Positions 4,216 through 54,520 of a stretch of 64,000 nucleotides of DNA are shown here, one piece after another. The stretch is from Candidatus Enterousia sp. Lineage in GTDB: Bacteria; Pseudomonadota; Alphaproteobacteria; Rs-D84. The notes below the pieces were generated by a model, which saw nothing but the letters and a program-made list of their open reading frames with translations, was not told the DNA's origin and did no database searches. Position 1 is the first letter of the stretch. Each line of letters opens with the position of its first letter. Made by a program: the position numbers and the translations under genes. The stretch is from contig JAZTWM010000006.1 in NCBI GenBank assembly GCA_045635825.1, positions 12,265 through 76,264 of the forward strand, in the 5' to 3' direction.

Positions 4216-6003
4216 ATGAAGTATAATTCCAAAGATTTAAAAGAAATGGCGAATGCAGTGCGCGCATGGGCATTGCATGCAATTAGAATCGCAGGCAGTG
4301 GACATGTTGGTATTGTCTTGGGGTGTGCGGATATTGTGACGGCGGTTTATGCTAACTTTTTGCGTCGTGGTCGTGATCGATTCGTTTTGTCTGCTGGACA
4401 TGGCAGTGCGTTATTGTATTCGGTCTTGAAACTGGCTGGATATGATATTGGTGAATTAGATTCTTTTCGTAAAATTGGTGGATTGCCCGGACATCCTGAG
4501 TTTGGTATCACAGGTGTCGATGCGACGACTGGACCGTTGGGGCAGGGGGTTGGAAATGCAGTTGGTATGGCATTGGCTGCGAAAATAAAAGACGCAGATA
4601 CAGATGCAAAAGTTTATTGTTTGTGTGGCGATGGTGATTTAATGGAAGGCGTTGCCCAGGAATCTGTTGCGTTTGCAGGGCGGTATAATTTAAATAATTT
4701 GATTCTGTTATGGGATGATAATGGAATTAGTATTGATGGTGTGGCACAAACAGATGTGGATATTCCTGCACGAATGACAGCGGCAGGATGGCGTGTCTTG
4801 ACTGTTGCGGGTGACGATTTTGCGTCTTTGAATCGTGTGCTGTCAATGGCGCAACGATCAAACAAGCCGACATTTATACAATGCAAAACCCAAATTGGTG
4901 CGATGTCATCTGTGGCCGGTATGGCCAAGGCACATGGTTTTGGCCTGGGTGATGCAGAATTGATGCAGTTGGTGCAAAAGTTTTTGTCGCCTGTGGGTGA
5001 AAATATGTGGCGTAATGTTGCAATGGAACAAGGGGTGGTTGAACTGACGGAATCAGAACCTTTTGTTTTGCCGCATGTTGCGTTGCCACAGGTTGGTGAA
5101 TGGATTTCAACACGTGAATTGTCGGGTATTTATTTGAATGAATTGTTGCAGGCAGGTGCAAATATTGTCGGTGGCAGTGCGGATTTAGGTGGCAGTACAA
5201 ATGTCAAGGTGTCGGCATCACGTGAAATTTCTGTGGATGATTTTAGGGGCAATTATATCAATTATGGTGTGCGTGAATTTGCAATGTCAGCAATCATGAA
5301 TGGTATGGCGGCGATGGGGATGCGTGTATATGGTTCAACGTTCTTGGTGTTTAGTGATTATATGCGTGCAGGAATGCGTTTGTCGGCGTTATCGGGGTTG
5401 CCGGTTGTTTATGTGCTGACCCATGATAGTATTGCAGTTGGCGAAGATGGGCCAACGCATCAGCCAATCGAACAATTGCCATCGTTACGTATGATTCCAA
5501 ATATGAATGTGTTCAGGCCATGTAATGGTGCGGAATTGATGTATGCATGGCGGTGTGGTTTGTGTGCGGATAATCGTCCAACGTCCATTGTTTTATCACG
5601 TCAAAAAATACGTCAGGTTTCAACCCCATTGGGTGCGGACCTGTCGCGTGGTGCGTATGTTATTCGTCCATCGGATACGACACGTGTTCGTGCAACTATT
5701 TTGGCCACCGGCAGCGAGGTGCCTTTGGCGTTTGATGTTGCAGAAAAATTGGGGGCAGGGGTTCAGGTTGTGTCTGTACCATCGGTTGCGGATTTTCGTG
5801 CCCAAGATAATGCATATAAGCAAGAGATTTTACGTGGTCTGGTTGTTGCGATAGAAGCGGCGACATCTGCACCATGGTTTGAGTTTGCAGATGTTGTGTT
5901 TGGTGCAGATGAATTTGGATTGTCTGGTGATGGTGAAACGGTATATCGCCATATGGGGTTTGATGCGGATGCAATCGCACAGAGTTTGGCGGACAAGATT
6001 TAG
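4216..6003 (+). CDS. tkt: Transketolase. Start MKYNSKDLKEMANAVRAWALHAIRIAGSGHVG; the tracked ORF begins earlier at 4012.
   Basis: SGH.G thiamine-PP motif, GDGDLMEG, transketolase C-terminal domain; ~595 aa. Confidence 0.85.
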   Translation: MKYNSKDLKEMANAVRAWALHAIRIAGSGHVGIVLGCADIVTAVYANFLRRGRDRFVLSAGHGSALLYSVLKLAGYDIGELDSFRKIGGLPGHPEFGITGVDATTGPLGQGVGNAVGMALAAKIKDADTDAKVYCLCGDGDLMEGVAQESVAFAGRYNLNNLILLWDDNGISIDGVAQTDVDIPARMTAAGWRVLTVAGDDFASLNRVLSMAQRSNKPTFIQCKTQIGAMSSVAGMAKAHGFGLGDAELMQLVQKFLSPVGENMWRNVAMEQGVVELTESEPFVLPHVALPQVGEWISTRELSGIYLNELLQAGANIVGGSADLGGSTNVKVSASREISVDDFRGNYINYGVREFAMSAIMNGMAAMGMRVYGSTFLVFSDYMRAGMRLSALSGLPVVYVLTHDSIAVGEDGPTHQPIEQLPSLRMIPNMNVFRPCNGAELMYAWRCGLCADNRPTSIVLSRQKIRQVSTPLGADLSRGAYVIRPSDTTRVRATILATGSEVPLAFDVAEKLGAGVQVVSVPSVADFRAQDNAYKQEILRGLVVAIEAATSAPWFEFADVVFGADEFGLSGDGETVYRHMGFDADAIAQSLADKI

Positions 6004-24809: not shown

Positions 24810-25385
24810 ATGGCTAAAAAGAAAAATATATTTAAAGAATTTGGTTCTTTTGTTCAACGTGGTAATGCAATCGATATGGCGGTTGGTATTATCGTTGGTA
24901 GTGTTATGACCAGTGTTGTAAACTCTTTGGTGAAGGATGTTTTGATGCCACCGATTGGTTTGTTGGTTGGTGGGGTTGATTTCTCTCAGTTGTTTGTGAC
25001 GTTAAGTGCATCTGCTGAAAAGTTTGAAACGATTGCACAGGCACAGGCTGCAGGTGTGGCGACATTGAATTATGGTATGTTTTTGAATTCGGTGGTTAGT
25101 TTCTTTATTACGATGTTTGCAATATTCTTGTTTGTTCGCACAATGAATAAAATGCGTGATAAGAAACCTGCAAACACCCATGCATGTCCATATTGTACAT
25201 CAAATATCAGTAATTCAGCGACAAAATGCCCATTTTGTTGTTCTGAGGTAGCCCCAGTCGAGACAGCGGCTGTAGAGGATAGCGAGTTGAAAAAAAGCAT
25301 CAAGGGTGTGACAAAAATGGCGGGACATGTGGCAGATGGCGCGTTAAGCAAAATTAAAAAAATTAAAAAAATTACAAAGAAATAG
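24810..25385 (+). CDS. mscL: Large-conductance mechanosensitive channel MscL with an unusual ~45-aa C-terminal CxxC..CxxCC zinc-ribbon-like extension
   Basis: FKEFGSFVQRGNAIDMAVGIIVGSVMTSVVNSLVKDVLMPPIG is the canonical MscL TM1; the tail is HACPYCTSNISNSATKCPFCCSE. Confidence 0.8.
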   Translation: MAKKKNIFKEFGSFVQRGNAIDMAVGIIVGSVMTSVVNSLVKDVLMPPIGLLVGGVDFSQLFVTLSASAEKFETIAQAQAAGVATLNYGMFLNSVVSFFITMFAIFLFVRTMNKMRDKKPANTHACPYCTSNISNSATKCPFCCSEVAPVETAAVEDSELKKSIKGVTKMAGHVADGALSKIKKIKKITKK

Positions 25386-25415
25386 GGCGGTTTATAAATA
25401 TTTTGCTTTAAGTTT

Positions 25416-25448
25416 GGTCGGCGGATAAAAATGTCCGCCGATTTTTTT
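25416..25448 (+). terminator. Rho-independent terminator after mscL (cggcggataaaaatgtccgccg + TTTTTTT)
   Basis: Hairpin + T-run. Confidence 0.6.
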
Positions 25449-25735
25449 GCTTGTTGTTGGTGGGTTATGTATAGTTTGCTGGGAAAGGTGGGATGGTTCT
25501 TTGTGGGCTTGGGCGTTAAATGTAATTCGTGTTTGTGTCGTATAGTTTGGGCGTGATCTTGTGTGTTGTAATCGGTAAGAGGTGATGGCGATTTTGATGT
25601 GGTGGTGTGTCGTTTGGGGAGTTTTTTTATGGTGGTGTAATAATTTATATGTGATTGTGCGTTTCGAAAAAAAAGTCCGGAAAACAGCGGGGTGTAGCGA
25701 TTGCTAAAAGGCGTATAATGTATATTATGTATAGT

Positions 25736-26015
25736 TTTGTGTGCTGTGGGCCACTAAACAATACCTAATATGTGTGCTTGTGTTTGTTGTGTTTTGGTGT
25801 GCTGTGGCCCACTAAACGGATACATAATATGTGTGCTGGTGTTTGTTGTGCTTTGGTGTGCTGTAGCCCACTAAACAATACATAATATGTGTGCTGGTGT
25901 TTGTTGTGCTTTAGTGTGTGCTGTGGCCCACTAAACGTATACATGATATGCGTGTGCTTGTGTTTGTTGTGCTGTGGTCCATTAAACGTATACATAATAT
26001 GTGTGTTTGTTGTCT
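25736..26015. repeat. About five tandem copies of a ~59-bp direct repeat (gtgtgctgtggcccactaaac[a/g]atacataatatgtgtgctggtgtttgttgtgctttg) inside a 1 kb ORF-free, C-depleted spacer
   Basis: Seen directly; unit starts near 25741, 25801, 25860, 25920, 25970, the last copy shortened. No unique spacers, so not CRISPR. Confidence 0.7.
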
Positions 26016-26410
26016 TGACCCGTTCCCATTCCTTGGCTATGTTTTTGGGTCGTTATTTGTAAATCTATATTTTTACAAATGCGGTTTAATTGTTTGTAAT
26101 TTGTGGATAGTTTGCTGTAATTGGTTGCGTGTTTGACTGTTGTGTAATATTGTGTTCTTTTGGTGGTTTGGACTTAAAAATGATGATTTTTGTGCCCTAT
26201 TTTGCTCGTTTTTTTGAAAAAATGGCGGATTTCTGCGGTTTTTTAGTGTTTTATGGCCGTTAGGGGTGATTTTTTGATGCTTTTTGTGGTGGGGTTGGGG
26301 TGTTTTTTATAGTGTTGTGGGGTATGGTGTGTGGTACCCTGCTTTGTTGTTAATGTAAAACTTTAACGTGTTACAATTGTTATTTGTTTGTAGCTAATAA
26401 TGTTTAAGAT

Positions 26411-26441
26411 AAAAAGCACGCCGATTGGCGTGCTTTTTATC
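26411..26441. terminator. Bidirectional terminator hairpin (aaaagcacgccgattggcgtgctttt)
   Basis: Perfect stem, A/T flanks; directly 3' of minus-strand gene 26437..26754. Confidence 0.55.
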
Positions 26442-26754
26442 GTTGTTTTTGTAATTTGATTGCCTTGCGGTGGTATTTTTGTGCTTGTTTTTTATATGTT
26501 TGTGCACTGTTGTGTGCCATATGTCCCAGGTAGAACATTAATAGTGCCAGCCCCAGTTGGGTGTAATTTGGATCGCTGTTATCATTGATTAGAGATAGTA
26601 TGTTTGCAATCAATAATGTAGCTGCAGAACAGTTTGCAACCACGCATGCAATTTTAGCATGGTTTACCTGACGCATTGTGTTTGCGTGCAATGTGTCATA
26701 TAATTCGATTTTATCTGGGTGATGATTGTTTGTTTTGGTGTGTACAGACGACAT
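26437..26754 (-). CDS. Small hypothetical membrane protein (two predicted TM helices, basic tail)
   Basis: ORF with two hydrophobic segments; last gene of the co-directional minus-strand array. Confidence 0.4.
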   Translation of the reverse strand: MSSVHTKTNNHHPDKIELYDTLHANTMRQVNHAKIACVVANCSAATLLIANILSLINDNSDPNYTQLGLALLMFYLGHMAHNSAQTYKKQAQKYHRKAIKLQKQR

Positions 26755-26769
26755 AATGTGTATTCCTTT

Positions 26770-27231
26770 TTATTTTTGTTTGTTGTATTTTGATGGAAAC
26801 AAAACCTTGCCCAAGGTATTTTGCATATATTGATCTGTGCATTTGCCTGTCGCCAATTGGCAAAAACAATGCATACGACGTATTGGTCGTGTCGTACCTG
26901 CGATGGAAAAGTCTGGATCGCATTTGCAAATCTGGATATCGCATACGTTATTCAGGTTCAGTGTTGAATGGTCGCTGCGATTGCCACACGATGGGCCGAT
27001 GTGGTAAATAGTTGTTGCCGAAATGCCATGATTGACTAAACAAGAGTCTGGCTTTGGGTGGCGGTTGTCAAGTATCGCCTGTAGCAATTTTTCCGCTTTG
27101 AATAATGTGATTTTATCCAGTTTGTGCAGTTTCAGTAATTTTTGCAATTCTGGACAGCGGGTTACGATACGCAATTTGGTTTGTGTTAATTTTTCGTTCA
27201 TGCGTGTACCAATATTATAAGTTAACGGCAT
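26770..27231 (-). CDS. Hypothetical protein (~150 aa; start probably MPLTYN or MNEKL, because the tracked N-terminus overlaps the next gene)
   Basis: ORF; contains an HSTL motif and several Cys; no confident family assignment. Confidence 0.35.
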   Translation of the reverse strand: MPLTYNIGTRMNEKLTQTKLRIVTRCPELQKLLKLHKLDKITLFKAEKLLQAILDNRHPKPDSCLVNHGISATTIYHIGPSCGNRSDHSTLNLNNVCDIQICKCDPDFSIAGTTRPIRRMHCFCQLATGKCTDQYMQNTLGKVLFPSKYNKQK

Positions 27232-27494
27232 TTTTGTTTGTAGTTGTCGCACAATGTTGCGATTTGAGAGGCTAAACGTTGCCCTGCTTGGAATGTTGGG
27301 CATGTGTACGGAAAGATTAATTGTACTTTGCCTTCGGCATCTACGTAGTATTTGATTGTTTTTGTTTGGATTTTTGGATAAATAATGCCGTCTGTGTCGC
27401 GTATTGCGTAAATATAGCAGGCACGTGGACAACCGTCGCAACGCATTTCTGGTAGTTTTGCTTCGTGTGGCATTTGGTGGAATTGTGTGAACAT
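27222..27494 (-). CDS. Small cysteine-containing protein, family member 2 (paralog of 2866..3144). Carries CDGCPRAC and C-terminal CDNYKQKCR.
   Basis: Colinear similarity with 2866..3144, including an identical-type C-terminal motif and an N-terminal CxGCxxxC. Confidence 0.5.
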   Translation of the reverse strand: MFTQFHQMPHEAKLPEMRCDGCPRACYIYAIRDTDGIIYPKIQTKTIKYYVDAEGKVQLIFPYTCPTFQAGQRLASQIATLCDNYKQKCR

Positions 27495-27616
27495 TTTTAT
27501 ATCCTTTGATTCTGTGTTTTTTATTTCAAGCGGATAATAGACAAAAGAAAATCACTTGTCAAGTGATGCCCCTGCCCGCTTGCTTGTAAAAAATCCCGCA
27601 GTTGCGGGATTTTTTA

Positions 27617-27934
27617 TTATCTTAGTCCTTTGGCACGACAACAGGCCGATGCGGCGGATTTCCAATCAGAGTATTGCTTTGATGGGGCGCGTAAATCACG
27701 CCATGGCTGCCAACCGCTGCAACGTTTTTTACTGCCTGTGCCAGTGCATTTTGCATAGCGACGCAATGTGCAGGTTTGTGCCGATGTTTTGCCTGTATCG
27801 GTTGTGCATTTTACAACAACATTTTGGTTTTTTGCATCATTCTTTCCCATTTCTTTGGATGACATAACCTGATATGCCCCAGCGCTGCAAATGGTGGATA
27901 TAACTAGCAGTGTTGTAAATAAATACTTCTTCAT
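27617..27934 (-). CDS. Small secreted cysteine-rich protein (signal peptide + 8 Cys)
   Basis: MKKYLFTTLLVISTICSAGA signal peptide; KCTTDTGKTSAQTCTL..KCTGTGSKKRCSG. Confidence 0.5.
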   Translation of the reverse strand: MKKYLFTTLLVISTICSAGAYQVMSSKEMGKNDAKNQNVVVKCTTDTGKTSAQTCTLRRYAKCTGTGSKKRCSGWQPWRDLRAPSKQYSDWKSAASACCRAKGLR

Positions 27935-27999
27935 TGGTTATCCCCTTTTGATACTGATATTATAAATCTTTGCGTTTCGAAAAACAATAAGAATAAATG

Positions 28000-29142
28000 T
28001 CAACGTGTTAATGGGTCTGTTGTTGGTTCGTGGCAACCGTTTTCACGCGTTAGTTTGACACGATTCATCCAGCCTTTTAAGAACTTTTTATTATTTCCAC
28101 GCTTGGATACCTGGACAAAATATTGTTGCATGTCGTCAAGATAATCGTTGTGCAAATCACCGTTATAGGTTTCAGCGGCACGTGCAACTTCATCGTCAAT
28201 TTTACTGCGTTCTGGTATTTTTAATACACGACAAAAATGTTTGATTCCTGTGACAGGGCCGGATGCCCAGCCAAAGGTGAAAACATCGCCACGAACATAG
28301 TCTGGTAATTTTTCAATGCCATGTTGACGATAGTATTTGCGATTAGCAATATCTTCGGCACCGGCACGTGTTAGATTGCGAACGTTAACCTCTGGATTGT
28401 TGTTTTGTGATATGCCATAGCATGTGTAACCGCCAGAATCGTCTTTGTCATGACCACAATCGCCTTCGGCACGAAATGTTGTAATCATAATTTTTTCAAA
28501 CGCAGGGTCTGATTGTGCATATTTACCGCTGGTTAAGATTTTGTTCAAGAAATGCTGACTGCGTTGTGGTGGTGTACATGGGCCATTGCGGACAGTTTTA
28601 TTTGCGATTACAGGCCGTCCAAAGGTATCGGTACCCACCGCACGTCCATTTGTGGTTGCTGTGGGTTGTGTTTGTGCCGTTGTGGGATATTGCGACTGTG
28701 TGGTTTGTTGCGTTTGCTGTGCCGTTGTTTGTTGTTCTGGGGTGGTTTGACGGTCGCCGATAGCCACGACTTCTTCGAATGCACCGGGTTTTTGCACGCA
28801 GTATTCATCGTCTAATGGATATTTGTCGCAGTATTGTTCGTGTGTCATTTTATGATAGTCTTGTTTTCGTTCCAGTTCTGCACGACTAATCATTCGGTCC
28901 AAATATGCTTCTTCGGATTCAACGTCAATTGTGTGAAATGCACTGGCATTGGCATAAGGGGCATACCCAGTTGATGCGTTGCTCGTCCGTTTGTTAAAAG
29001 AATAATCCATAGATGTTTTTGGTGCATTTTCTACACGTAATAATGATTTGGACAATCCGTATGCGGATGTGCATACGCCAGTCATGATGAATAATAATAA
29101 AAAGTGGCGTGTAAAATTATTCATTGGTTGTCCAAGGTTCAT
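28000..29142 (-). CDS. Secreted GH108-family muramidase-like protein with a peptidoglycan-binding (PG_binding_3-like) domain, Q/T-rich linker and the N-terminal DYSFNKR..TGYAPYAN module
   Basis: EGDCGHDKDDSGGYTCYGIS resembles the GH108 catalytic N-terminus (EGGYvnDpxDpGGxTkyGIt); signal peptide; TQQTTQSQYPTTAQTQP linker. Confidence 0.55.
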   Translation of the reverse strand: MNLGQPMNNFTRHFLLLFIMTGVCTSAYGLSKSLLRVENAPKTSMDYSFNKRTSNASTGYAPYANASAFHTIDVESEEAYLDRMISRAELERKQDYHKMTHEQYCDKYPLDDEYCVQKPGAFEEVVAIGDRQTTPEQQTTAQQTQQTTQSQYPTTAQTQPTATTNGRAVGTDTFGRPVIANKTVRNGPCTPPQRSQHFLNKILTSGKYAQSDPAFEKIMITTFRAEGDCGHDKDDSGGYTCYGISQNNNPEVNVRNLTRAGAEDIANRKYYRQHGIEKLPDYVRGDVFTFGWASGPVTGIKHFCRVLKIPERSKIDDEVARAAETYNGDLHNDYLDDMQQYFVQVSKRGNNKKFLKGWMNRVKLTRENGCHEPTTDPLTR

Positions 29143-30832
29143 CGTTCATTATTAGATAATATAGTGCAGGATTGTCAGAACCGGGGTTTCTTAGAATTGG
29201 GCGAACAACATATATGTCTACGTTGCAAGGGGTGTTGCCACCCTGCTCTTCTTTCAGGTCTTCGTGAAACTTTGATGCAAAATCCATTGCCTGCAAGTAT
29301 GCAGCATCATCGTCATTATCGCTGATTGAATCACCCATCCACATCAGCCACATACCATGGTTTACAACGTTTTCTTGACCTTCTAGGTCGTCGGCAGATA
29401 GTAATAATAATGGTGCAAATTCAACGCCACTGGTAAAGTCGCCTGTTTCAGTTTCGGTCCAGTCGTACATGCCACCAATAAACTTGATTGCACCGTATGC
29501 CAGACCACCGGCGGCCTCTAATTTTCCAAGCATAGCGGCATTTTTCATAGTGGAATGGAATAACCAATCTTTGGCTTGGTTGGCAAAACCGCTGGAACGG
29601 CCCATGCGTGCGGCCTTGGTAATAAGTTTGTTGCCTGTCATGGCGGATTTTGTTGCCCGGGCGGCACGTGCAACGATGTTGCCACGTTGTGCCAATTTTA
29701 ATGAACGCAATCCACGACGATAGGCATTTAATTCAGAAAATGTTTTTGTTGCGTCGCGATATTTTTTTACGTCGTTGGTTGCGTCTAGTGTTTTTACAGT
29801 GTCTTTGGCTTTGTCCAAATCCTTGGTCAAATCTGCAATTTTTGCGGCGTCTTTGGTCTTGTCTAGTTTATTGATTTTATTTGTTAGGTCTGCAACGTCA
29901 CGTGTGGCACGTGTCCATTTTATAACGTCATCAGATTTGCTGAGTGTTTTTATAGTACCGGTCAGACCTTTTAATGCACGTGATGCACGTGCGGCCTTGG
30001 TTGCCCCGGTTATGACAATGCCACCACCCATAGTTACAACGGTTATTACGATATCCAGTGCAATTTCCAGATATGTTATCCATTGCAGGTTTACATCACC
30101 TGCAATGTAATAGTCGTTAGAGTCGTCTTCCATATTGACGGTTCTTTCACTCATTACTTTGTTTATGATTAAATCGTCATCTGCCAATGCGGAACGTGCA
30201 GTGCATTTACCGCCATTGTCGTCTGCATTTGGATACAGTTCGTCAATATGGTCACGAATGTATTCAATTGCCAGGGTGTTATTTTTATCAGGCCCCACAA
30301 ATTCGTCCAATGCCCCATGTTCGACAATCATGATTGCGTACCATGCGGGTTCTGTATTTGTCCAAATCGCGGCATCATCTGGATCGCCCAGGCGTGGGTT
30401 TGGATTGTCGGTTGGCAGTCCGCGTTTTTCAGACAGCATTAATCGCTGTTTTAATAATTTTGGCTGTGTTTCATAGTTTACGATAATTTCACGTCCATTT
30501 GGAAATGTGTACATGATGGGCATGAACTTTATTGTTTCGCCTTCGGGAGTGTTAGCGATTTCAGGGCATGCCAGTACCGGACCTAGAACATCTTTTTGTG
30601 CAAATGTTTGATAAATCCATTGCTGAATTACGGTTTCGTGTTCCGTTTCGGCCGCAGGATCGGCGGTGCGTGCCAATGCGTCTGCAAATACTTTGGTTGC
30701 ACATGCCGTATCGTCGGGGCCACGTGTTGGGATTGTTGTGTCTATCAGGCGTGTGTTGGCCCCGTATACGGTGTGTGGTATAACCGCAGGGAACAATAAT
30801 AGGCAAAAGAATATAAAAATGTTTTTTAGCAT
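29117..30832 (-). CDS. Secreted hypothetical protein (571 aa) with a central Gly-rich hydrophobic segment and a K/D/T-rich coiled-coil-like repeat region
   Basis: Signal peptide MLKNIFIFFCLLLFPAVIPHTVYG; VITVVTMGGGIVITGATKAA; repeated KxLxKxxD motifs; start overlaps the stop of the upstream gene. Confidence 0.5.
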   Translation of the reverse strand: MLKNIFIFFCLLLFPAVIPHTVYGANTRLIDTTIPTRGPDDTACATKVFADALARTADPAAETEHETVIQQWIYQTFAQKDVLGPVLACPEIANTPEGETIKFMPIMYTFPNGREIIVNYETQPKLLKQRLMLSEKRGLPTDNPNPRLGDPDDAAIWTNTEPAWYAIMIVEHGALDEFVGPDKNNTLAIEYIRDHIDELYPNADDNGGKCTARSALADDDLIINKVMSERTVNMEDDSNDYYIAGDVNLQWITYLEIALDIVITVVTMGGGIVITGATKAARASRALKGLTGTIKTLSKSDDVIKWTRATRDVADLTNKINKLDKTKDAAKIADLTKDLDKAKDTVKTLDATNDVKKYRDATKTFSELNAYRRGLRSLKLAQRGNIVARAARATKSAMTGNKLITKAARMGRSSGFANQAKDWLFHSTMKNAAMLGKLEAAGGLAYGAIKFIGGMYDWTETETGDFTSGVEFAPLLLLSADDLEGQENVVNHGMWLMWMGDSISDNDDDAAYLQAMDFASKFHEDLKEEQGGNTPCNVDIYVVRPILRNPGSDNPALYYLIMNDEPWTTNE

Positions 30833-30899
30833 TATTATTCCCTGTAGTGTTTTTATTTGGTTGTGTATTGTGCCGCCTGTGCCCCCATAACGGTATCTG

Positions 30900-32732
30900 C
30901 TAGTTTACCTTTTTATTGTTGTTTGGGTTACTGTCGGTTTTGTCGTTAGGATCCGATGTTTTAAACAGTTTTTCGGTCCATTTTTTGATGTCGAATTGTT
31001 TAGAGTTTTTTGCAGCATCGTCTGCGGCATCTATGTCTTTTGCGGATTTGCCAACAGCGGCACCGGCGCGTTCTGCGAACTTTTTTACAGTACCAAGTTT
31101 TTTGCTGGCCTCTTCCATATTTTGTGCCCCTTTTACGGCGTCTAGTACTTCGGTATCTTCGTTGTTACCTTTGCCACCAGTGCCACATTCTTCGTCCATT
31201 TCCGCCAGTTGTGCTTCGATTTTTGCGATTGCATATTCATACATATCGGGTCCCAGATCAGGTTCCAGTGGTGCAGGTTCCGGCTGTGGTGTTGTTTGTT
31301 GTGCGGTTGGTGCGGGTGTTGTTTCAGGGATTATTTCCGCACAATAATCGGCCATTAACTGATAGCCATCGATGCAACCCCATTCGATACATTTTTTTTC
31401 TTCGTTCAATCCAAATATGTATATGGGCAGGTTTTTTTCTTCTTCGTTTGGACCTTTCCCATCACAATATTTTGGGGTGCATTTTTTTGTTTTTGAATCA
31501 TAATTAAATGATTCACCGCAGTCCCATTTCCAACATACTTTTGATGTATCTGGGACGTATCGAACGCTATCACCTAGGCCATTTGGTGGTGCAGATGTGC
31601 CAGAACACCAGCGTGTTGTACAACTTTCTGACCATGCGTCATCACTGACTAGGTCTTTAAAGAATCCAAGGATCCCGCCACTAGATTTTGAACGGCCACC
31701 CACTTGGCATTGGCGAACCATGGCCATTGCACCACCACCTTTTTTCTGACAGAACATATAATCGCCAATGCCACGTTTTACGTCGCCGGTGGTTGTATTG
31801 CAACACGTTTGTTTGTTTGTAACAGGGTCTGTCAAACAGTCGGTTTCCGAGAACATTTGCCATCCAACAGTGGCCGCACCAACAACTGCACCTGCACCAA
31901 GAGCGATCCATCCAGCTGGGCCAGATAGTGCTAAAACGGATGCAACCCCCATGCCGACCATTGCACCGCCTGCGGTTGACATTAGAAGGTCTTTGCCTGT
32001 GCGGGCACCTTCGCCCATATTAGCATCCCACCACATTTTAACACCGCCTACTACTGATAGTACGCCTAGACCTTTGCTTACAACTTTGCCCGCTGTACCT
32101 TTTAATATGTTTAATTTGCTATTTGTCTTGATTGGGTCTGGTTTTGGTGGTGGCATGTTGTTAAAGCCTTTGCCAGATACGAATTTTCCGTTCATATTTT
32201 TATAATTGACTATGCCACTTTTATGGACTTCACGATAGTATTGTTTGCCGTCTGTGTGGGTGAAAAGTTCGCGTGTAAAAACATTACCTTTGCTGCTGGT
32301 AATTGTGCCTGTTGGCAGTGGTTTTGGCGCCTTTGCCGCGGCGGTTGTTGTCTTGGCGGCTGTGCTGCTTGTCGAAGTTGATGCTGGTGTGGATGGTGAC
32401 GCAGTGGGGGTTGCAGCTGGTGCACCGTTTTTAGAGAAGTAAATAGATCCATTTTTTTTAGTAACGCTTATACCCTGTTTTTTTAGATTTCTTTGTAAGG
32501 CATCGTATTCTCCTGGGGTAAGTTGGTCAGTGGTATAGGCGGGCATACCCCCACCTTTTGTTTGCCAGTCGCTTAATATGCTGTCAAATGACTGGCCACC
32601 AAAACCCAATTTTGCTTTTGCTGCATCGAAGACGGGGGTGGCGGCATAAGATAATGATACTGTGCATATTAATAATGAAAATGCAACAAGGAATGTTTTT
32701 ATTTTTTTTAGAAAAAAAGTTTTTATAGACAT
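30900..32732 (-). CDS. Secreted hypothetical protein (~610 aa) with a Thr/Ala/Ser/Pro-rich linker, a glycine-zipper membrane segment and a Cys-rich C-terminal half
   Basis: Signal peptide; AATPTASPSTPASTSTSSTAAKTTTAAAKAPKP; GAMVGMGVASVLALSGPAGWIALGAGAVVGAATVG glycine zipper; CxxC/WxC-rich region. Confidence 0.5.
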   Translation of the reverse strand: MSIKTFFLKKIKTFLVAFSLLICTVSLSYAATPVFDAAKAKLGFGGQSFDSILSDWQTKGGGMPAYTTDQLTPGEYDALQRNLKKQGISVTKKNGSIYFSKNGAPAATPTASPSTPASTSTSSTAAKTTTAAAKAPKPLPTGTITSSKGNVFTRELFTHTDGKQYYREVHKSGIVNYKNMNGKFVSGKGFNNMPPPKPDPIKTNSKLNILKGTAGKVVSKGLGVLSVVGGVKMWWDANMGEGARTGKDLLMSTAGGAMVGMGVASVLALSGPAGWIALGAGAVVGAATVGWQMFSETDCLTDPVTNKQTCCNTTTGDVKRGIGDYMFCQKKGGGAMAMVRQCQVGGRSKSSGGILGFFKDLVSDDAWSESCTTRWCSGTSAPPNGLGDSVRYVPDTSKVCWKWDCGESFNYDSKTKKCTPKYCDGKGPNEEEKNLPIYIFGLNEEKKCIEWGCIDGYQLMADYCAEIIPETTPAPTAQQTTPQPEPAPLEPDLGPDMYEYAIAKIEAQLAEMDEECGTGGKGNNEDTEVLDAVKGAQNMEEASKKLGTVKKFAERAGAAVGKSAKDIDAADDAAKNSKQFDIKKWTEKLFKTSDPNDKTDSNPNNNKKVN

Positions 32733-32734
32733 AA

Positions 32735-33628
32735 TCAATAACTTCCTGTGGTTTGGCATTGTTCAATTGGTGTGCCGGCGGCACGACATGCCTTTAATTT
32801 CGCCAGATCTTCACGTAATGTTTGGGTGGTTGTACCGTATTTGGCTTCGCACCATTCACGACGTTTGGCAGCAATGCGAATGCGACGGTCCAGATACGCC
32901 TCTTTGGATTCGATTGTGATGGTTTTAAATGCACTGGTGCCGGCGTATGGTTTATATCCTTCGGTGGCGTTGGCCTTGCGTTCTTCAAAGGAAAAGTCAG
33001 CCGCCACTTTTGGCATTTCATCTGTCGCAGTTGGTAATTTGTTTGCACCCGATTGTTCGCGCAGGGCCTCTAACTCTGCCCGGCGGGCGGCCATGTCTGC
33101 CTTCCAATTATCTTGTTGCTTGGGTTGGGTGGACGGAAGTGTTGATACAATCGCCTGGGTTGGTGTGTTTGTCTTTATGGATGTGTCTGGGAATGCAATA
33201 CGGGCATTTTTATCAAACCCAGTATTTTGTTTTACATAATTGTCAAATGCACCATCTAAGTATCCGGCACAAGATGTGGCATAGTTTGCCCCAGGCATTT
33301 GTGTCAATTGCATCATTAATGCAGGACGTATATCCTTTAATTTTGTGTCACGACAATTGTTACGCATTCCACATTGCTGGGCAATCAATTGGGCGGCAAT
33401 TTGGTTGCAGTCGCCAGATTTAGCGTCTGGACCATCGACGTATACCGGTGTTGGCATACGCTGATTATATGGCGAGTTTGGGTTCCAATATGGATTTGAT
33501 GAATAACTTTGTACGTTTTGAATGTTTCCATAATTGGAAAATGCAGATGGTGATGCATTGCATAAACCAGTATATGTGATAACACATATCATAAATAAAT
33601 GAAGTATATACTTGTGCTTAATTCTCAT
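32735..33628 (-). CDS. Secreted hypothetical protein carrying the DFSFEERKANATEGYKPYAG module near its C-terminus
   Basis: Signal peptide MRIKHKYILHLFMICVITYTGLCNA; the shared module with 18841 and 28000 proteins; Cys pairs. Confidence 0.5.
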   Translation of the reverse strand: MRIKHKYILHLFMICVITYTGLCNASPSAFSNYGNIQNVQSYSSNPYWNPNSPYNQRMPTPVYVDGPDAKSGDCNQIAAQLIAQQCGMRNNCRDTKLKDIRPALMMQLTQMPGANYATSCAGYLDGAFDNYVKQNTGFDKNARIAFPDTSIKTNTPTQAIVSTLPSTQPKQQDNWKADMAARRAELEALREQSGANKLPTATDEMPKVAADFSFEERKANATEGYKPYAGTSAFKTITIESKEAYLDRRIRIAAKRREWCEAKYGTTTQTLREDLAKLKACRAAGTPIEQCQTTGSY

Positions 33629-33649
33629 TTCCAGGTCCCTGTAATGTGA

Positions 33650-34117
33650 TTATAGCAAAAACAGACCTGTCAGGAAAGATAAAAATCCCCCAATTAGAAA
33701 AAATGGTGCAAATGGTATATATTTTTGTTGATTAAATCGTGCCCATATTGCCCCAATCAGGCATGCGAATATTAGTGCCAGTCCCAATCCATTTGTCCCC
33801 AGCCATAATCCCCCAACACCAATTAACTTTATATCGCCCATACCAATTGGTGGGTATGGAATGTTTTTATTTTTGTGCAGTTTGTCAAATAATATGCCAA
33901 TAATTGTTGCCATAATGTATCCGAATGTTGCACCAATGACAGCATTTGATATGTCGGTTGGAAAACTGTAAAAAGTGGTTAATATCAGCCCAATCAGCAT
34001 AAGTGGAAACAGGTATGCGTCTGGGATTATACGACGACGCAGGTCGGCCCTGGATATCATTATGGCCAGCCAAATTGCAGTGGCAATTAATAGGCTAAAA
34101 AATATATTAAAAATCAT
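33650..34117 (-). CDS. Prepilin peptidase-like (A24 family, CpaA/TadV-type) small membrane protein
   Basis: 155 aa, 4-5 TM helices, Asp in the ADLRRRIIPD context and a second Asp in a later loop, as in CpaA-type peptidases. Confidence 0.5.
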   Translation of the reverse strand: MIFNIFFSLLIATAIWLAIMISRADLRRRIIPDAYLFPLMLIGLILTTFYSFPTDISNAVIGATFGYIMATIIGILFDKLHKNKNIPYPPIGMGDIKLIGVGGLWLGTNGLGLALIFACLIGAIWARFNQQKYIPFAPFFLIGGFLSFLTGLFLL

Positions 34118-34190: not shown

Positions 34191-34778
34191 ATGAGCAAGG
34201 GTTGGGATAACACAGCACTAAAAAAATTAAAAGCATTGACTGGCAAGGGGTTGTCTACGTCCGAAATTGGTAAGCGGCTGGGGATGTCTAAGAATGCGAT
34301 TGTGGGTAAATTAAATCGTTTGGGCTGGAATGCCAAGGCGGGTGGTGCCAGTGTCGCCGGGGCAAGTGAAAAGAAAACCGCTGCAGTGTCAAAGAAGACC
34401 GAAGAAGTTGTGGAAAAACGTGCAACAAAAAAAGTAGCCACCAAGGCTGTAAAAGAAGAAAAAAAAGTTGTTGTGAAAAAAGTGGCGGCCAAGGCCGAAA
34501 CAAAGCCTGTAAAAGCCAAGGTAGAACCTAAGAAGGCAGAAGAAAAAACATCTGCACGTTCCACAAAGGTAAGCGCCAAGGATTTGGCAGTGCATCAGCG
34601 GATTGTTCAGCATTCTTTGGAAATGGCAAACTTGAAACCAAATCAATGTCGTTGGCCGATTGGTGATCCTGATTCTGAACATTTTCATTTTTGTGGCGAA
34701 ACAGTGTTTGTGGGTAAACCATATTGCTATGAGCATTGTAAGCAGGCGTATCAGTTTACACCGCCCAAGAAAAAATAG
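34191..34778 (+). CDS. gcrA: Cell-cycle regulator GcrA
   Basis: N-terminal W..LK.L...GLS.SEI..RLG.S.NA..GK..RLG and C-terminal CRWPIGDP....FCG.....PYC..H are GcrA hallmarks; a K/A/E-rich linker lies between them. Confidence 0.75.
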   Translation: MSKGWDNTALKKLKALTGKGLSTSEIGKRLGMSKNAIVGKLNRLGWNAKAGGASVAGASEKKTAAVSKKTEEVVEKRATKKVATKAVKEEKKVVVKKVAAKAETKPVKAKVEPKKAEEKTSARSTKVSAKDLAVHQRIVQHSLEMANLKPNQCRWPIGDPDSEHFHFCGETVFVGKPYCYEHCKQAYQFTPPKKK

Positions 34779-51736: not shown

Positions 51737-52297
51737 ATGAATTCAAAGTTGCAAATTATTTCAGGACAGTTTCGTGGACGTAAGTTGCGTTTGCCGCCAG
51801 ATGCACGTCCAACACAAAATCGTGCCAGAATTGCATTGTTTAATATGATGGAATCTGGGATTGTTAATGGTGGGGCGGATTTGCGTGTGTGGGATGCGTT
51901 TGCAGGATCTGGGGCGTTTGGGTTGGAATGTTTGTCACGATATGCAAATGCTCAGGTTTTGTTTACTGACCCTGCCCCATCTTCGATTAAGACGGTGCGT
52001 GATAATTTAGCGACGTTATCTGTTGGTACGCGTGCAACAGCGGTTCAGACCGATGCGATTGGTGCGATTGCCGGGTATGGTGCAGATATGGACTTGGTCT
52101 TTTTGGATCCGCCGTATGTCGATGCGGATTTAGGTGTGGCGTTTGTTCGTCGGTATTCGACTGTTGCCAAATCTGGCGCGATTTTAATCTGGGAACAGGA
52201 AGTTGGTAACCCACAACCTGTGGATGAAGCGGTATGGGATATTTTGCGTGACAAGACATATGGTCGTGCCAGATTTTTGATTTTAAGAAAAATCTAG
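51737..52297 (+). CDS. rsmD: 16S rRNA (guanine966-N2)-methyltransferase RsmD
   Basis: IISGQFRGRKL, D.FAGSGA.G.E..SR, DPPY catalytic motif. Confidence 0.8.
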   Translation: MNSKLQIISGQFRGRKLRLPPDARPTQNRARIALFNMMESGIVNGGADLRVWDAFAGSGAFGLECLSRYANAQVLFTDPAPSSIKTVRDNLATLSVGTRATAVQTDAIGAIAGYGADMDLVFLDPPYVDADLGVAFVRRYSTVAKSGAILIWEQEVGNPQPVDEAVWDILRDKTYGRARFLILRKI

Positions 52298-52498
52298 ATT
52301 ATAAAAATTTTATTCATGTGCATTTTGCAATTGTGCAGTAAGTACATTTTTTTCTATACTTATTTTGAAGACATCAAAGGAAAGGATGTTAACGCATTGA
52401 ATGTACAATGTTTTGTTACTTGGCGTAGTGTGTTTGCACTGGGCCGGTTTTTGGCATTGTGTATTTGACGCGAGTGTTTTGGGTATAATAAAGGGAGT

Positions 52499-52771
52499 TT
52501 GATGCGCTGTGTCGCGCTGATTTTTGCCATGATGATATGTGGGGCTGCAAATGCGGAACTGGTGTCACGTGGCTATGTCGATGCGACGGTCGAGACGCGT
52601 GTTGATACGTCCAAAGATGCCAAGCAAGTGATGACGGGACCGTCTGCCAAGATTGGTGATAAATATTTGTATGAAATATGGCCAAATGCAACAAACGCAC
52701 AGGTTGGTAAGATGTATACAGATGATACAGGATTGGATGATTGGGGCGCGATTCCAGCCGTATGGAAGTAG
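52499..52771 (+). CDS. Small secreted protein, member of a local three-gene family. N-term YVDATVETRVDTS; C-term YLYEIWPNATNAQVGKMY..AVWK.
   Basis: Signal peptide; shares its N-terminal motif with 53015 and its C-terminal motif with 53252. Confidence 0.5.
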   Translation: MMRCVALIFAMMICGAANAELVSRGYVDATVETRVDTSKDAKQVMTGPSAKIGDKYLYEIWPNATNAQVGKMYTDDTGLDDWGAIPAVWK

Positions 52772-53014
52772 TTTTTGGATTATGGTGTTTCTTTTTATGG
52801 TTAGCTTGCTGTAATTTATTGTTTTTTTGTTGTTTTTTTGCGTCAAAAAGGGCTTGCCCGGTTTGCCTGTTTTTGTGTATGATATATTAAAGTATGGTGG
52901 GGTATTGAATATTCCGCAAAAGGAAGGGTTTATAAAAACATAGTTTTTTATCTTTTGTGGGGGATTTGATGTCGGTGGTTGTGAGGCGACCGCATATTAG
53001 AGGGATATTTTGGT

Positions 53015-53242
53015 TTGAGAATATTGGTGTTCGCATTTTTGATGGGGTGGTTGCCGTTTACAGCATTTGCTGTGACGGTTGCGACTGCTGATTATGTTGA
53101 TGCAAAATCTGATACCAAGGTTGACACATCCGCCAATGCAGTTCAAACACTGAAAGGGGACTATACTGTGTCTGGTTCGTTTACAGTGACAGGGGCATTC
53201 AAGGTGCCAACGCCGCCATTGCCAAATCCAGATGCAGATTAA
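53015..53242 (+). CDS. Small secreted protein, family member (N-terminal YVDAKSDTKVDTS motif only)
   Basis: Signal peptide MRILVFAFLMGWLPFTAFA; motif shared with 52499. Confidence 0.45.
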   Translation: MRILVFAFLMGWLPFTAFAVTVATADYVDAKSDTKVDTSANAVQTLKGDYTVSGSFTVTGAFKVPTPPLPNPDAD

Positions 53243-53251
53243 TACTAGGTT

Positions 53252-54520
53252 ATGAAGCGAATTTTATGTTTTTTGGTTGGTATGTTTATGTCTGTGGCAA
53301 ATGCGGCGGAAATGGCCACGATTGGATATGTTCATGAATTATTAGAGCATAATTATGGTGTCTTTGTGCCCATGAATGACACGTTGACCGATGCGGACAA
53401 GGATACGCCGGTCAATATGGAATATCTGTTAACGGTTGTTGATATCGCCAATGAGTTTATTACAGGGGTGCGTACGAACTATGCCGGGACGGTTTATGCG
53501 ACAGATGATGCGGCAGATACGGTTGCAACCATTCAGGCGTATGATACTTTGCTGAAAGAAGTTGAAGCGGTGGATTATGAATATCCGTTTGAAATGACTG
53601 TGTCGGGTGGTTCTTTGTCGTTTACAATATCTGCCCAAGGGGAGTTTTATATAGATTGGGGTGATGGAACGCAGGAAACAATAACCAAGCCAGATACGAC
53701 AAATACGACCTATTCGCATTCCTTTACTGGCTATGATTCACATTCTGTACGTTTGGGTGGGCTGGCAACCGATTACAATGATAATGTTACCACTGCGGCA
53801 ATCAGTTTTTATGGCGATTCCAGTATTTCAACCATCCAAGGTAACCTGAGCAAGATTTTCCCAACATTGGAAAATGGTGAAAACCCACGATTTTATCAAA
53901 CTTTTGCTGAAATGTCTGTGACAGGGGCGATACCGGCAAATTTATTTATAGATTTAGTTGGCGCACCAGTAGAGAATATGTTTTATAGAACTTTTTATGG
54001 CAGTAATGGTTTCCGTGGTGCAATACCGGAATCTTTGTTTGGTACAATGACAGGTGCACCAGCCAAGGCGATGTTTTATGAAACGTTTCGTGGGGTGTCA
54101 CAATTAACAGGTGGTGTTCCGGAAAAATTGTTTTCAAGTATTACAGGTGCACCCGCAGAGAACATGTTTTATGGGACATTTTATGGGCTGTCCAAAATGC
54201 GTGGAACGATTCCATCTGGTGTGTTTGCAGGGATTTCTGGCGCACCTGCCCCAGGAATGTTCAACCAGACGTTTGCCAATTGCAGTAAGTTAAGTGGTAT
54301 TGGTGAAGGGGTGTTTGGAAATCTGTCGGGGGCCGCACAAAATAATATGTTTTACAGGACATTTTATGGTGATAAAAAATTGACAGGATATACCCCAAAG
54401 ATAAATGGGCAATATTTGTATGAAGTTTGGCCAGATGCGACATCTGCCCAGGTTGGTGGTATGTTTGGCAGTTGTAATAAATTGTCTGATTATCGATCTT
54501 TCCCCAGTGTGTGGCGATAA
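53252..54520 (+). CDS. Secreted repeat protein (422 aa) with ~6 tandem ~26-aa repeats (G.IP..LF....GAPA.NMFY.TF.G...L.G), possibly LRR-like; C-terminal YLYEVWPDATSAQVGGMF..SVWR motif shared with 52499
   Basis: Signal peptide MKRILCFLVGMFMSVANA; the internal repeats are visible directly in the translation. Confidence 0.55.
   Translation: MKRILCFLVGMFMSVANAAEMATIGYVHELLEHNYGVFVPMNDTLTDADKDTPVNMEYLLTVVDIANEFITGVRTNYAGTVYATDDAADTVATIQAYDTLLKEVEAVDYEYPFEMTVSGGSLSFTISAQGEFYIDWGDGTQETITKPDTTNTTYSHSFTGYDSHSVRLGGLATDYNDNVTTAAISFYGDSSISTIQGNLSKIFPTLENGENPRFYQTFAEMSVTGAIPANLFIDLVGAPVENMFYRTFYGSNGFRGAIPESLFGTMTGAPAKAMFYETFRGVSQLTGGVPEKLFSSITGAPAENMFYGTFYGLSKMRGTIPSGVFAGISGAPAPGMFNQTFANCSKLSGIGEGVFGNLSGAAQNNMFYRTFYGDKKLTGYTPKINGQYLYEVWPDATSAQVGGMFGSCNKLSDYRSFPSVWR

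Follow-up and report, generated by a model that had tools for sequence, protein, structure and literature searches.

The dif site of Escherichia coli, at which chromosome dimers are resolved, reads GGTGCGCATAATGTATATTATGTTAAAT (GGTGCGCATAA TGTATA TTATGTTAAAT) (Kono 2011, PMC3025954), and the FtsK-orienting polar sequences (KOPS) of this species follow the consensus GGGNAGGG (PMC2800217). Here we compare these and related systems with an intergenic spacer of about 1 kb (25386-26436) in a stretch of Candidatus Enterousia DNA of 64,000 nt, which is referred to at its full length as the window; positions 25708-25735 of this spacer almost certainly are the chromosomal dif site. Published dif sites correlate with the shift point of the skew, from which they can be offset by up to ~5% of the genome (PMC3025954). 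When bound to a half-site of E. coli dif, XerD stops FtsK ~5-fold better from its outer face (PMC2800217). In Bacillus subtilis, XerD unloads Smc-ScpAB at dif-like sites named XDS, and an artificial XDS array forms a boundary (work cited in PMC11840125). The Xer system also serves mobile elements: gokushovirus lysogeny is XerC/XerD-dependent (PMC7062461), and integrations of the CTX-phi type leave non-functional dif-like sequences behind (PMC3089051). In Thermococcus kodakarensis, according to PMC11840125, dif is found in a 1.9-kb intergenic region between convergent genes, and it is the sequence around dif, not dif or Xer, that organizes the SMC-dependent chromosome structure.

A dif site is in itself a known kind of element, and the Enterousia locus shares the main traits of the E. 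coli dif/XerCD/FtsK-KOPS system: a site of 28 bp with an 11-6-11 layout, the centre TGTATA, the same inner arm bases, and converging G-rich octamers of the GGGNAGGG type. The site occurs once per related locus outside lysogens and, as in E. coli, is exploited by mobile elements that lack an integrase. Unlike E. coli dif, it stands in a conserved non-coding region of 1 kb with extra oriented XerD half-sites, its XerD arm is part of a long palindrome, and there is no switch of skew or gene strand within -25/+38 kb. The unusually long intergenic region between convergent genes is a likeness to T. kodakarensis, whose locus belongs to an archaeal XerA system.

The dif site and the polar motifs converging on it

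A sequence-only reading of the window had left open whether the spacer encodes a non-coding RNA, is a decayed gene, or is a structural or recombination element. The recombination element is the option that stood, given that the spacer contains an XerC/XerD dif site. Relatives were collected as 58 species-level metagenome-assembled genomes with an MscL 70-84% identical (Candidatus Enterousia and unnamed gut Alphaproteobacteria; loci L001-L058), and a further sample consists of 77 metagenome contigs retrieved by an exact 28-mer, one copy each. The comparison with mscL-downstream regions of relatives, which the earlier reading had proposed, yielded two short conserved blocks in almost every species. 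Block 1, found by BLASTN of the spacer against the related loci, covers 25706-25737 (AAAAGGCGTATAATGTATATTATGTATAGTTT). Its 31-nt consensus AAAGGCGYATAATGTATATTATGTATAGTTT is present with at most two mismatches in ~50 species, always on the mscL strand, and at every locus the block stands downstream of OMP-aroK-mscL. An assembly artefact, which had been named as a possible refutation, is contradicted by the same architecture in more than 100 independent assemblies. The features of the spacer, from left to right, are as follows.

25416-25443, + strand: intrinsic terminator of mscL (12-bp stem, then a T-run), left boundary of the spacer
25465-25477, + strand (direct): isolated XerD-arm half-site TTATGTATAGTTT, exact over 13/13 positions, just after the mscL terminator
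25664-25700, + strand: pre-dif motif, with an A-run, the hairpin-like CCGGAAAACAGCGG and the KOPS-like GCGGGGTG (25687-25694) directed toward dif
25708-25735, + strand: predicted dif, chromosome dimer resolution site, 28 bp, 11-6-11
25708-25718, 25719-25724 and 25725-25735: parts of dif, namely XerC arm AAGGCGTATAA, centre TGTATA and XerD arm TTATGTATAGT
25722-25771, no strand assigned: imperfect palindrome between the right half of dif and the first inverted copy, with a short stem-loop inside
25735-26015, - strand: tandem array of five ~59-bp units, each combining a GT-rich spacer with a small hairpin and an XerD-arm copy in inverted orientation
26176-26245, no strand assigned: second conserved block (core2), with a - strand KOPS-like motif, A-runs, the 17-mer ATGGCGGATTTCTGCGG (26222-26238) and a T-run
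26408-26441, no strand assigned: bidirectional terminator hairpin of the minus-strand operon (15-bp perfect inverted repeat), right boundary of the spacer

The site in the window is identical to E. coli dif at 21/28 positions and the genus consensus at 22/28; the centre (6/6) and the inner arm bases CATAA/TTATG are shared without change. In addition, the XerC arm matches that of V. cholerae dif1 at 8/11 positions (dif1 sequence from PMC3089051). A single copy was counted in the 64-kb window and, lysogens apart, in each related locus; these counts refer to loci and not to whole genomes. Considering the 11-6-11 reading and the identity to E. coli dif, the "-10 box" that had been suggested near 25711-25716 is therefore XerC arm plus central region of dif: the TATAAT is actually located at 25714-25719, and across the related loci no conserved -35 was found upstream of it.

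Independent support for a segregation terminus comes from motif polarity. In an unbiased scan for k-mers that flip strand across the site, GGCAGGG and GGGCAGG were the strongest flipping 7-mers. The octamer GGGCAGGG, an instance of the consensus GGGNAGGG (which is that of E. coli), is found left of dif 49 times on the + strand and never on the - strand; right of dif the numbers are 0 and 72, respectively. Seven of these octamers are in the window (+ at 4540, 5753 and 21467; - at 27570, 36149, 51970 and 56066). The left-flank counts are not independent, because this flank is syntenic between species, but the right flank is not syntenic and its gene content differs between species. The polarity was replicated in the 77 further metagenome contigs (left 14 + and 0 -, right 2 + and 15 -). 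RYAGGGCA is also polar (left +26/-6, right +4/-118), as is GCRGGGTR (far left +88/-12, far right +18/-45; at most 60 bp before dif, 20 + against 0 -). The site is thus the point where FtsK-orienting polar sequences converge.

This convergence continues inside the spacer. The pre-dif motif is semi-conserved at 10-45 bp left of dif and is related to the second conserved block. Within the latter, 26193-26200 (TGCCCTAT) is the reverse complement of the polar motif ATAGGGCA and therefore constitutes the innermost KOPS-like element of the right arm, pointing at dif. With polar motifs at 25687-25694 (+) and 26193-26200 (-), dif is therefore bracketed within the spacer by convergent FtsK-orienting motifs. 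The median distance of core2 from dif, on its right, is 562 bp (278-816) over 44 insertion-free loci; in two lysogens core2 lies past the prophage. Its ATGGCGGATTTCTGCGG plus T-run resembles a terminator acting in both directions, and in six species core2 contains the perfect palindrome CCGCAGATTTCTGCGG and a T-run. Two other candidates for core2 were rejected: a sigma-54 promoter, the spacing of which is off by one (judged by eye), and a peptide from ATGGCGGAT (13 aa to variable length), which is broken by changes of T-run length between species.

What appeared to be an empty kilobase can hence be annotated with a probable landmark, dif, for a widespread group of uncultured gut alphaproteobacteria. 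Such an annotation would fix the segregation terminus in fragmented metagenome-assembled genomes.

Half-sites, palindrome and prophages around dif

The sequence-only reading had reported about five contiguous repeats of 59 bp, and these are indeed present: Tandem Repeats Finder places an array at 25734-25978 (period 58-59, 4.1 copies, 86-88% matches, score 345-388), and a fifth, partial unit extends it to ~26015, giving five copies of the core motif. The exclusion of a CRISPR array holds as well, since the 59-bp units are contiguous without unique spacers; no cas domain was detected among the neighbouring open reading frames (ORFs) scanned. The hairpin of each unit is formed by GTTTGGTG..CACTAAAC and is followed on the + strand by AAAC-n-TACATAATAT, copies of which are located (+ reading) at 25756-25771, 25814-25830, 25873-25888, 25933-25949 and 25984-26000. 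The reverse complement of this motif, ATATTATGTAT.GTTT, contains 3-4 central bases of dif, then its XerD arm and trailing GTTT. To judge from this composition, the 59-bp repeats derive from dif.

On the other side of dif, the half-site at 25465-25477 is without a preceding XerC arm or central region and turns its outer end toward dif. Searching the window for the 13-mer TTATGTATAGTTT with at most two mismatches gives nine matches, six of which fall inside the 1-kb spacer. We then counted orientations in 132 loci (the window, 54 loci from genomes and 77 from metagenomes), using XerD-arm 13-mers with at most one mismatch. To the left of dif, over 600 bp, all 45 copies are direct, and to the right, over 900 bp, all 69 are inverted; all flanking half-sites therefore point their outer (GTTT) end at dif. 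Elsewhere such 13-mers are scarce (10 in 1.25 Mb), which corresponds to a ~100-fold enrichment near dif. The left half-site is present in 48/121 loci at a median of -260 bp and is never inverted at this threshold. Over 25 species and 64 units the XerD-arm motif alone is conserved, not the inner stems or the spacers, and within arrays 5.6% of motif positions differ, against 26% for the rest of the unit. In the literature we found no description of tandem, mirror-oriented XerD half-sites around dif. A search of metagenome contigs with a species-specific 30-mer gave no match, nor did an exact-protein search with the window MscL return a contig.

In two relatives (L028 and L031) a complete inverted dif-like site (GCGCCATAAC GAATA TTATGTATACAG, minus strand) is present ~110 bp right of dif, and the repeat unit may descend from it. 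In L023 and L044 the sequence directly after dif is the same as in these two loci, but no inverted site was detected.

The second peculiarity of the locus is the palindrome. The half of dif that pairs in it, on the right, is made up of the XerD arm flanked by ATA from the centre and by GTTT. For 25706-25775 the single-stranded DNA fold has an energy of -9.1 kcal/mol (z -3.1), and an equivalent hairpin in 20 other species reaches up to ~23 pairs, with z from -4.5 to -9.2 against shuffles. In an alignment of 17 species, 96.6% of the cells are paired and five inner pairs change on both sides; its 26 double-change cells were equalled in 0/500 shuffles, and sliding the partners cuts the pairing to 18-62%. 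The covariation is confined to the hairpin that contains the XerD arm of dif, and folds of the whole array are weakly better than shuffles on either strand (z -2.3 and -2.7). No description of a long covarying palindrome containing an XerD arm was found in the literature. A hairpin telomere was rejected as the palindrome is internal to contigs, and an integron attC site was rejected as the GTTRRRY/RYYYAAC cores are absent.

Several described systems resemble parts of this arrangement. In B. subtilis the XDS sites are dispersed over the terminus region. The Enterousia half-sites are instead packed within 0.3 kb on either side of dif, in tandem, in strict mirror orientation and coupled to a hairpin. 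The likeness lies in the XerD side being kept while the XerC side is degenerate or absent, and in a position in the terminus region in addition to the real dif (Karaboja et al. 2021, cited in PMC11840125 and PMC11894783). These XDS-like traits are all found in 25465-25477 and in the five array copies, which are candidate XerD sites. With CTX-phi attP(+) and other integrative mobile elements that exploit Xer (IMEX) the locus has in common a dif-like site, a short loop and an inverted dif-like site, so arranged that a single strand folds into a duplex Xer site. Unlike in CTX-phi attP(+), the host palindrome pairs the central-right half and the XerD arm rather than the XerC arm; moreover, its inverted arm is tandemly repeated, present without a prophage, and a host feature conserved by position. 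Accessory sequences of the plasmid sites cer and psi lie on the XerC side, where they bind PepA with ArgR or ArcA. As in cer/psi, ~0.2-0.3 kb of non-coding DNA beside the Xer core could modulate recombination, although the Enterousia array is on the XerD side and is built of XerD-arm copies.

Six relatives have insertions of 4-6 kb at dif (L003, L004, L017, L039, L042 and L053). Those of L017 and L042 encode a Microviridae major capsid protein of family Phage_F (Pfam, 1e-53 to 1e-67) and a Rep protein, which the other four insertions match by tblastn. Among ten ORFs tested with Pfam in L017 and L042, no integrase or recombinase was found. Every insertion is bordered by dif or by a dif-hybrid site. 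In L017, for instance, the left junction is a perfect dif, and the right junction is the hybrid GGACGCATAC TGTATA TTATGTATAGTTT, after which the host repeats follow. The insertions agree with the XerCD-dependent lysogeny of microviruses in PMC7062461 and, with their hybrid junctions, indirectly favour use of the site by the host XerC and XerD. The dif locus thus appears to be also an attachment site for microviruses that have no integrase and borrow XerCD, and the Enterousia group can be counted among the hosts of temperate microviruses. Scans of viral contigs with the right half of dif gave no match for a 19-mer and, for a 15-mer, only matches judged to be due to chance; no attachment site of a free phage was obtained from them.

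Two types of prophage can be distinguished. In type 1 the left junctions are at L004:10905-10985, L053:10884-10962 and L039:10830-10945, and dif is regenerated at L004:16848, L053:15282 and L039:16577. The junction forms a forked hairpin (XerC arm, bulged centre, XerD-like arm, loop, inverted arms), with z of -5 to -7 in the three loci when folded as single-stranded DNA. This predicted fold has the architecture of the single-stranded attP(+) of CTX-phi; in the literature we found such a forked hairpin described for filamentous phages alone. Prophages of type 2 (L017:6529-10935, L003:10893-15320 and L042:10653-15420) have a perfect dif as the junction nearer to mscL and a hybrid site as the distal one. 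Nearly the same phage is present in L003 and L017, which are different host species (Rep 99-100% identical).

Proposed mechanism and rival explanations

In the mechanism that we propose, XerC and XerD would bind 25708-25735, add a crossover and so resolve chromosome dimers at cell division. FtsK would be steered from both sides by the polar GGGCAGGG and RYAGGGCA motifs, reach dif and activate recombination. The direct upstream half-site and the inverted array would together form a mirror-symmetric set of XerD half-sites with their outer ends facing dif. According to the reading that we prefer, these would bind extra XerD and might serve FtsK as a backstop or unload SMC complexes. A translocase would be allowed to enter from outside because it meets the inner face of XerD, whereas one that overshoots dif would be blocked because it meets the outer face. 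Mirror half-sites of this kind would be the natural counterpart of the in vitro directional block of FtsK by XerD half-sites and of engineered XDS arrays, and they suggest a concrete and testable way in which cells might keep FtsK or SMC at dif.

The separate parts of this proposal deserve different degrees of confidence. As an overall explanation, a dif locus with dif-derived repeats and half-sites that bind extra XerD is probable, and we hold it with good confidence. That the flanking half-sites have a function is a closer call, which we put a little short of an even chance. The furthest step, a natural polar trap that FtsK or SMC can enter and cannot leave, with uncoupled termini of segregation and replication, is tentative and rather unlikely. 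If true, it would be a Tus-Ter-like logic made from a recombinase and its own half-sites. The analogy with Tus-Ter is one of logic only: oriented sites are mirrored around the terminus and would be permissive from outside and blocking from inside, but proteins and motifs are unrelated, and the blocked machine would, we infer, be FtsK or SMC and not the replisome.

Several observations weigh against the preferred reading. None of xerC, xerD and ftsK was found in the window among the ORFs scanned. Unlike at most dif sites (PMC3025954), GC skew, third-codon-position GC skew and gene-strand bias do not switch at dif; GC skew stays positive across dif, from -25 to +38 kb in the window and, in 42 related loci, over as much as 10 kb per side. 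The conservation test within arrays is biased because the units were located through the motif, and the 5.6% observed has to be compared with an estimated biased null of ~17%. Right copies (1-6) are present in 59/105 loci and missing from 46/105, and since half-sites are lacking at many loci, with a copy number of 0-6, they cannot be essential. The shift point of the skew is a correlate of dif, and the lack of a switch here is compatible with a dif site; the offset of dif from the shift point may be modest in genome terms. Judged by skew, the + strand continues to look like the leading strand over 38 kb or more past dif, though GGGCAGGG flips exactly at dif. A switch of GGGCAGGG without a switch of GC skew amounts to a natural experiment that separates selection for segregation polarity from replication-driven strand bias.

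The most serious rival accepts dif as genuine and regards the repeats and half-sites as functionless debris, palindromic or minisatellite, at a recombination hot spot. We give this appreciable weight, though clearly less than even. Template switching, gene conversion with the selected XerD arm and unequal crossing-over could keep the copies alike without selection, which is a further point against our reading, and the hairpin attachment site of an old single-stranded-DNA element is a possible seed. The variable copy number fits this explanation, as does the complete turnover of spacer and inner stem sequences between species. Furthermore, the order of site, loop and inverted site is that of the left end of CTX-phi-type integrations, as present in L004, L039 and L053, and the L028/L031 species group has its full inverted dif-like site at ~110 bp. 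However, relics of integration would leave direct copies on both sides, whereas the orientation rule is without exception at up to one mismatch (45/0 and 0/69). The arms are of host type (TTATGTATAGTTT) and not of phage type (GATTATGTTGAGTT), within arrays the motif varies far less than the remainder of the unit, and the left half-site keeps a conserved position of about -260 bp in 48 loci.

The remaining rivals interpret the spacer without dif as its central element. A GU-rich non-coding RNA could start at the TATAAT of dif, contain tandem hairpins and end at the terminator-like element of core2, and hairpins with compensatory changes, stems with G-T pairs that are tolerated on the + strand, a weak promoter-like match (25701-25728) and the palindrome plus T-run of six species would all suit it. 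Nonetheless, the TATAAT/CATAAT is XerC arm plus the first central base and has no conserved -35, promoter-like matches number 3 where shuffles lead one to expect 3.8, and G-T pairs are to be expected on a strand biased to G and T. The length from dif to core2 varies from 278 to 816 nt with the XerD-arm motif alone conserved, and core2 is without a conserved RNA fold (RNAalifold). The Rfam scan that the sequence-only reading had suggested gave no family at the gathering score and, at E <= 10, nothing besides terminator look-alikes (and tRNAs elsewhere). The RNA is therefore improbable, and that earlier option was not sustained. A replication origin, or an iteron-type plasmid-like origin with the repeats as binding sites of an initiator, might be proposed on account of tandem direct repeats in a long intergenic region and of the same skew sign on both sides. 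We consider its probability negligible: the spacer has one 8/9 match to a DnaA box, and such matches are at the chance level in the window (35 against 26 +/- 5 expected); a scan of the ~40 larger window ORFs turned up no dnaA, dnaN, parAB or hemE; the expected skew switch is absent, and KOPS converge here whereas they diverge from an origin. Equally hard to credit is a protein-coding gene in the spacer, whether decayed or real but masked by frameshifts. The ORFs present there, which reach 76 aa at most, overlie the tandem repeats; more than 50 species keep blocks of 13-31 nt only, with indels of any length between them, a non-coding pattern that speaks against the earlier suggestion of decay, and the spacer is non-coding and GT-rich in all species examined.

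Composition and neighbouring genes

The window is chromosomal DNA of an alphaproteobacterium, as follows from its genes (GcrA at 34191-34778, and hisS, prfA, uvrA, argS, tig, thyA, rplM/rpsI and ruvB). The spacer is flanked by mscL (24810-25385, +; Pfam MscL, 2e-34; after aroK) and a minus-strand ORF (26437-26754). That these genes converge 1 kb apart, each with a terminator, could be confirmed (1051 bp, with the hairpins at 25416-25443 and 26408-26441), and so could the absence of a credible ORF, as all spacer ORFs are short (at most 76 aa). For the composition the earlier figures hold in part. The G+T content is high as claimed (70%; A 19.2, C 10.8, G 28.1 and T 42.0% over 25386-26436), but C amounts to ~11% and not 7%, a value approached in one 150-bp sub-window alone (7.3%). 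The spacer is more extreme than DNA outside long ORFs elsewhere in the window (C 15.5-17%, G+T 54-56%), and the dif spacers of related species have 66% G+T and 9-10% C on both sides of dif.

Across the window as a whole, G and T are strongly in excess on the + strand. The third-codon-position GC skew, measured on this strand, amounts left of dif to 0.44 (+ genes) and 0.32 (- genes), and right of it to 0.47 (+ genes) and 0.29 (- genes). At 0.44 the skew of the spacer is within this range of 0.29-0.47. The C-depletion can thus be attributed to the mutational bias of the + strand acting on unconstrained DNA, to which the GT-rich repeat spacers add. GGGG tracts, for which a G-quadruplex prediction had been advised, do exist (four runs, 26262-26335), but with loops of ~17, 2 and 17 nt they are by eye a poor quadruplex candidate. 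At the corresponding position related species have GCCCC..GGGGC hairpins, which are terminator-like.

The MscL of the window has a C-terminal extension of ~60 aa in which a CxxC-(11)-CxxCC motif (HACPYCTSNISNSATKCPFCCSE) may form a zinc ribbon ahead of a lysine-rich tail; in many Enterousia relatives the tblastn matches run through this extension. To the right of dif, the minus-strand operon 26437-34117 encodes proteins without a family match, a prepilin peptidase (33650-34117) and, at 28000-29142, a protein carrying a GH108 lysozyme-like domain. Several of these genes have homologues in L003 and L005 that are located on the opposite side of dif, in reversed orientation. A second long gap between large ORFs (52297-53252) is not ORF-free: it contains ORFs of 75-90 aa whose N- and C-termini are like those of the adjacent secreted repeat protein of 422 aa (53252-54520), and which are perhaps truncated paralogues of that protein.

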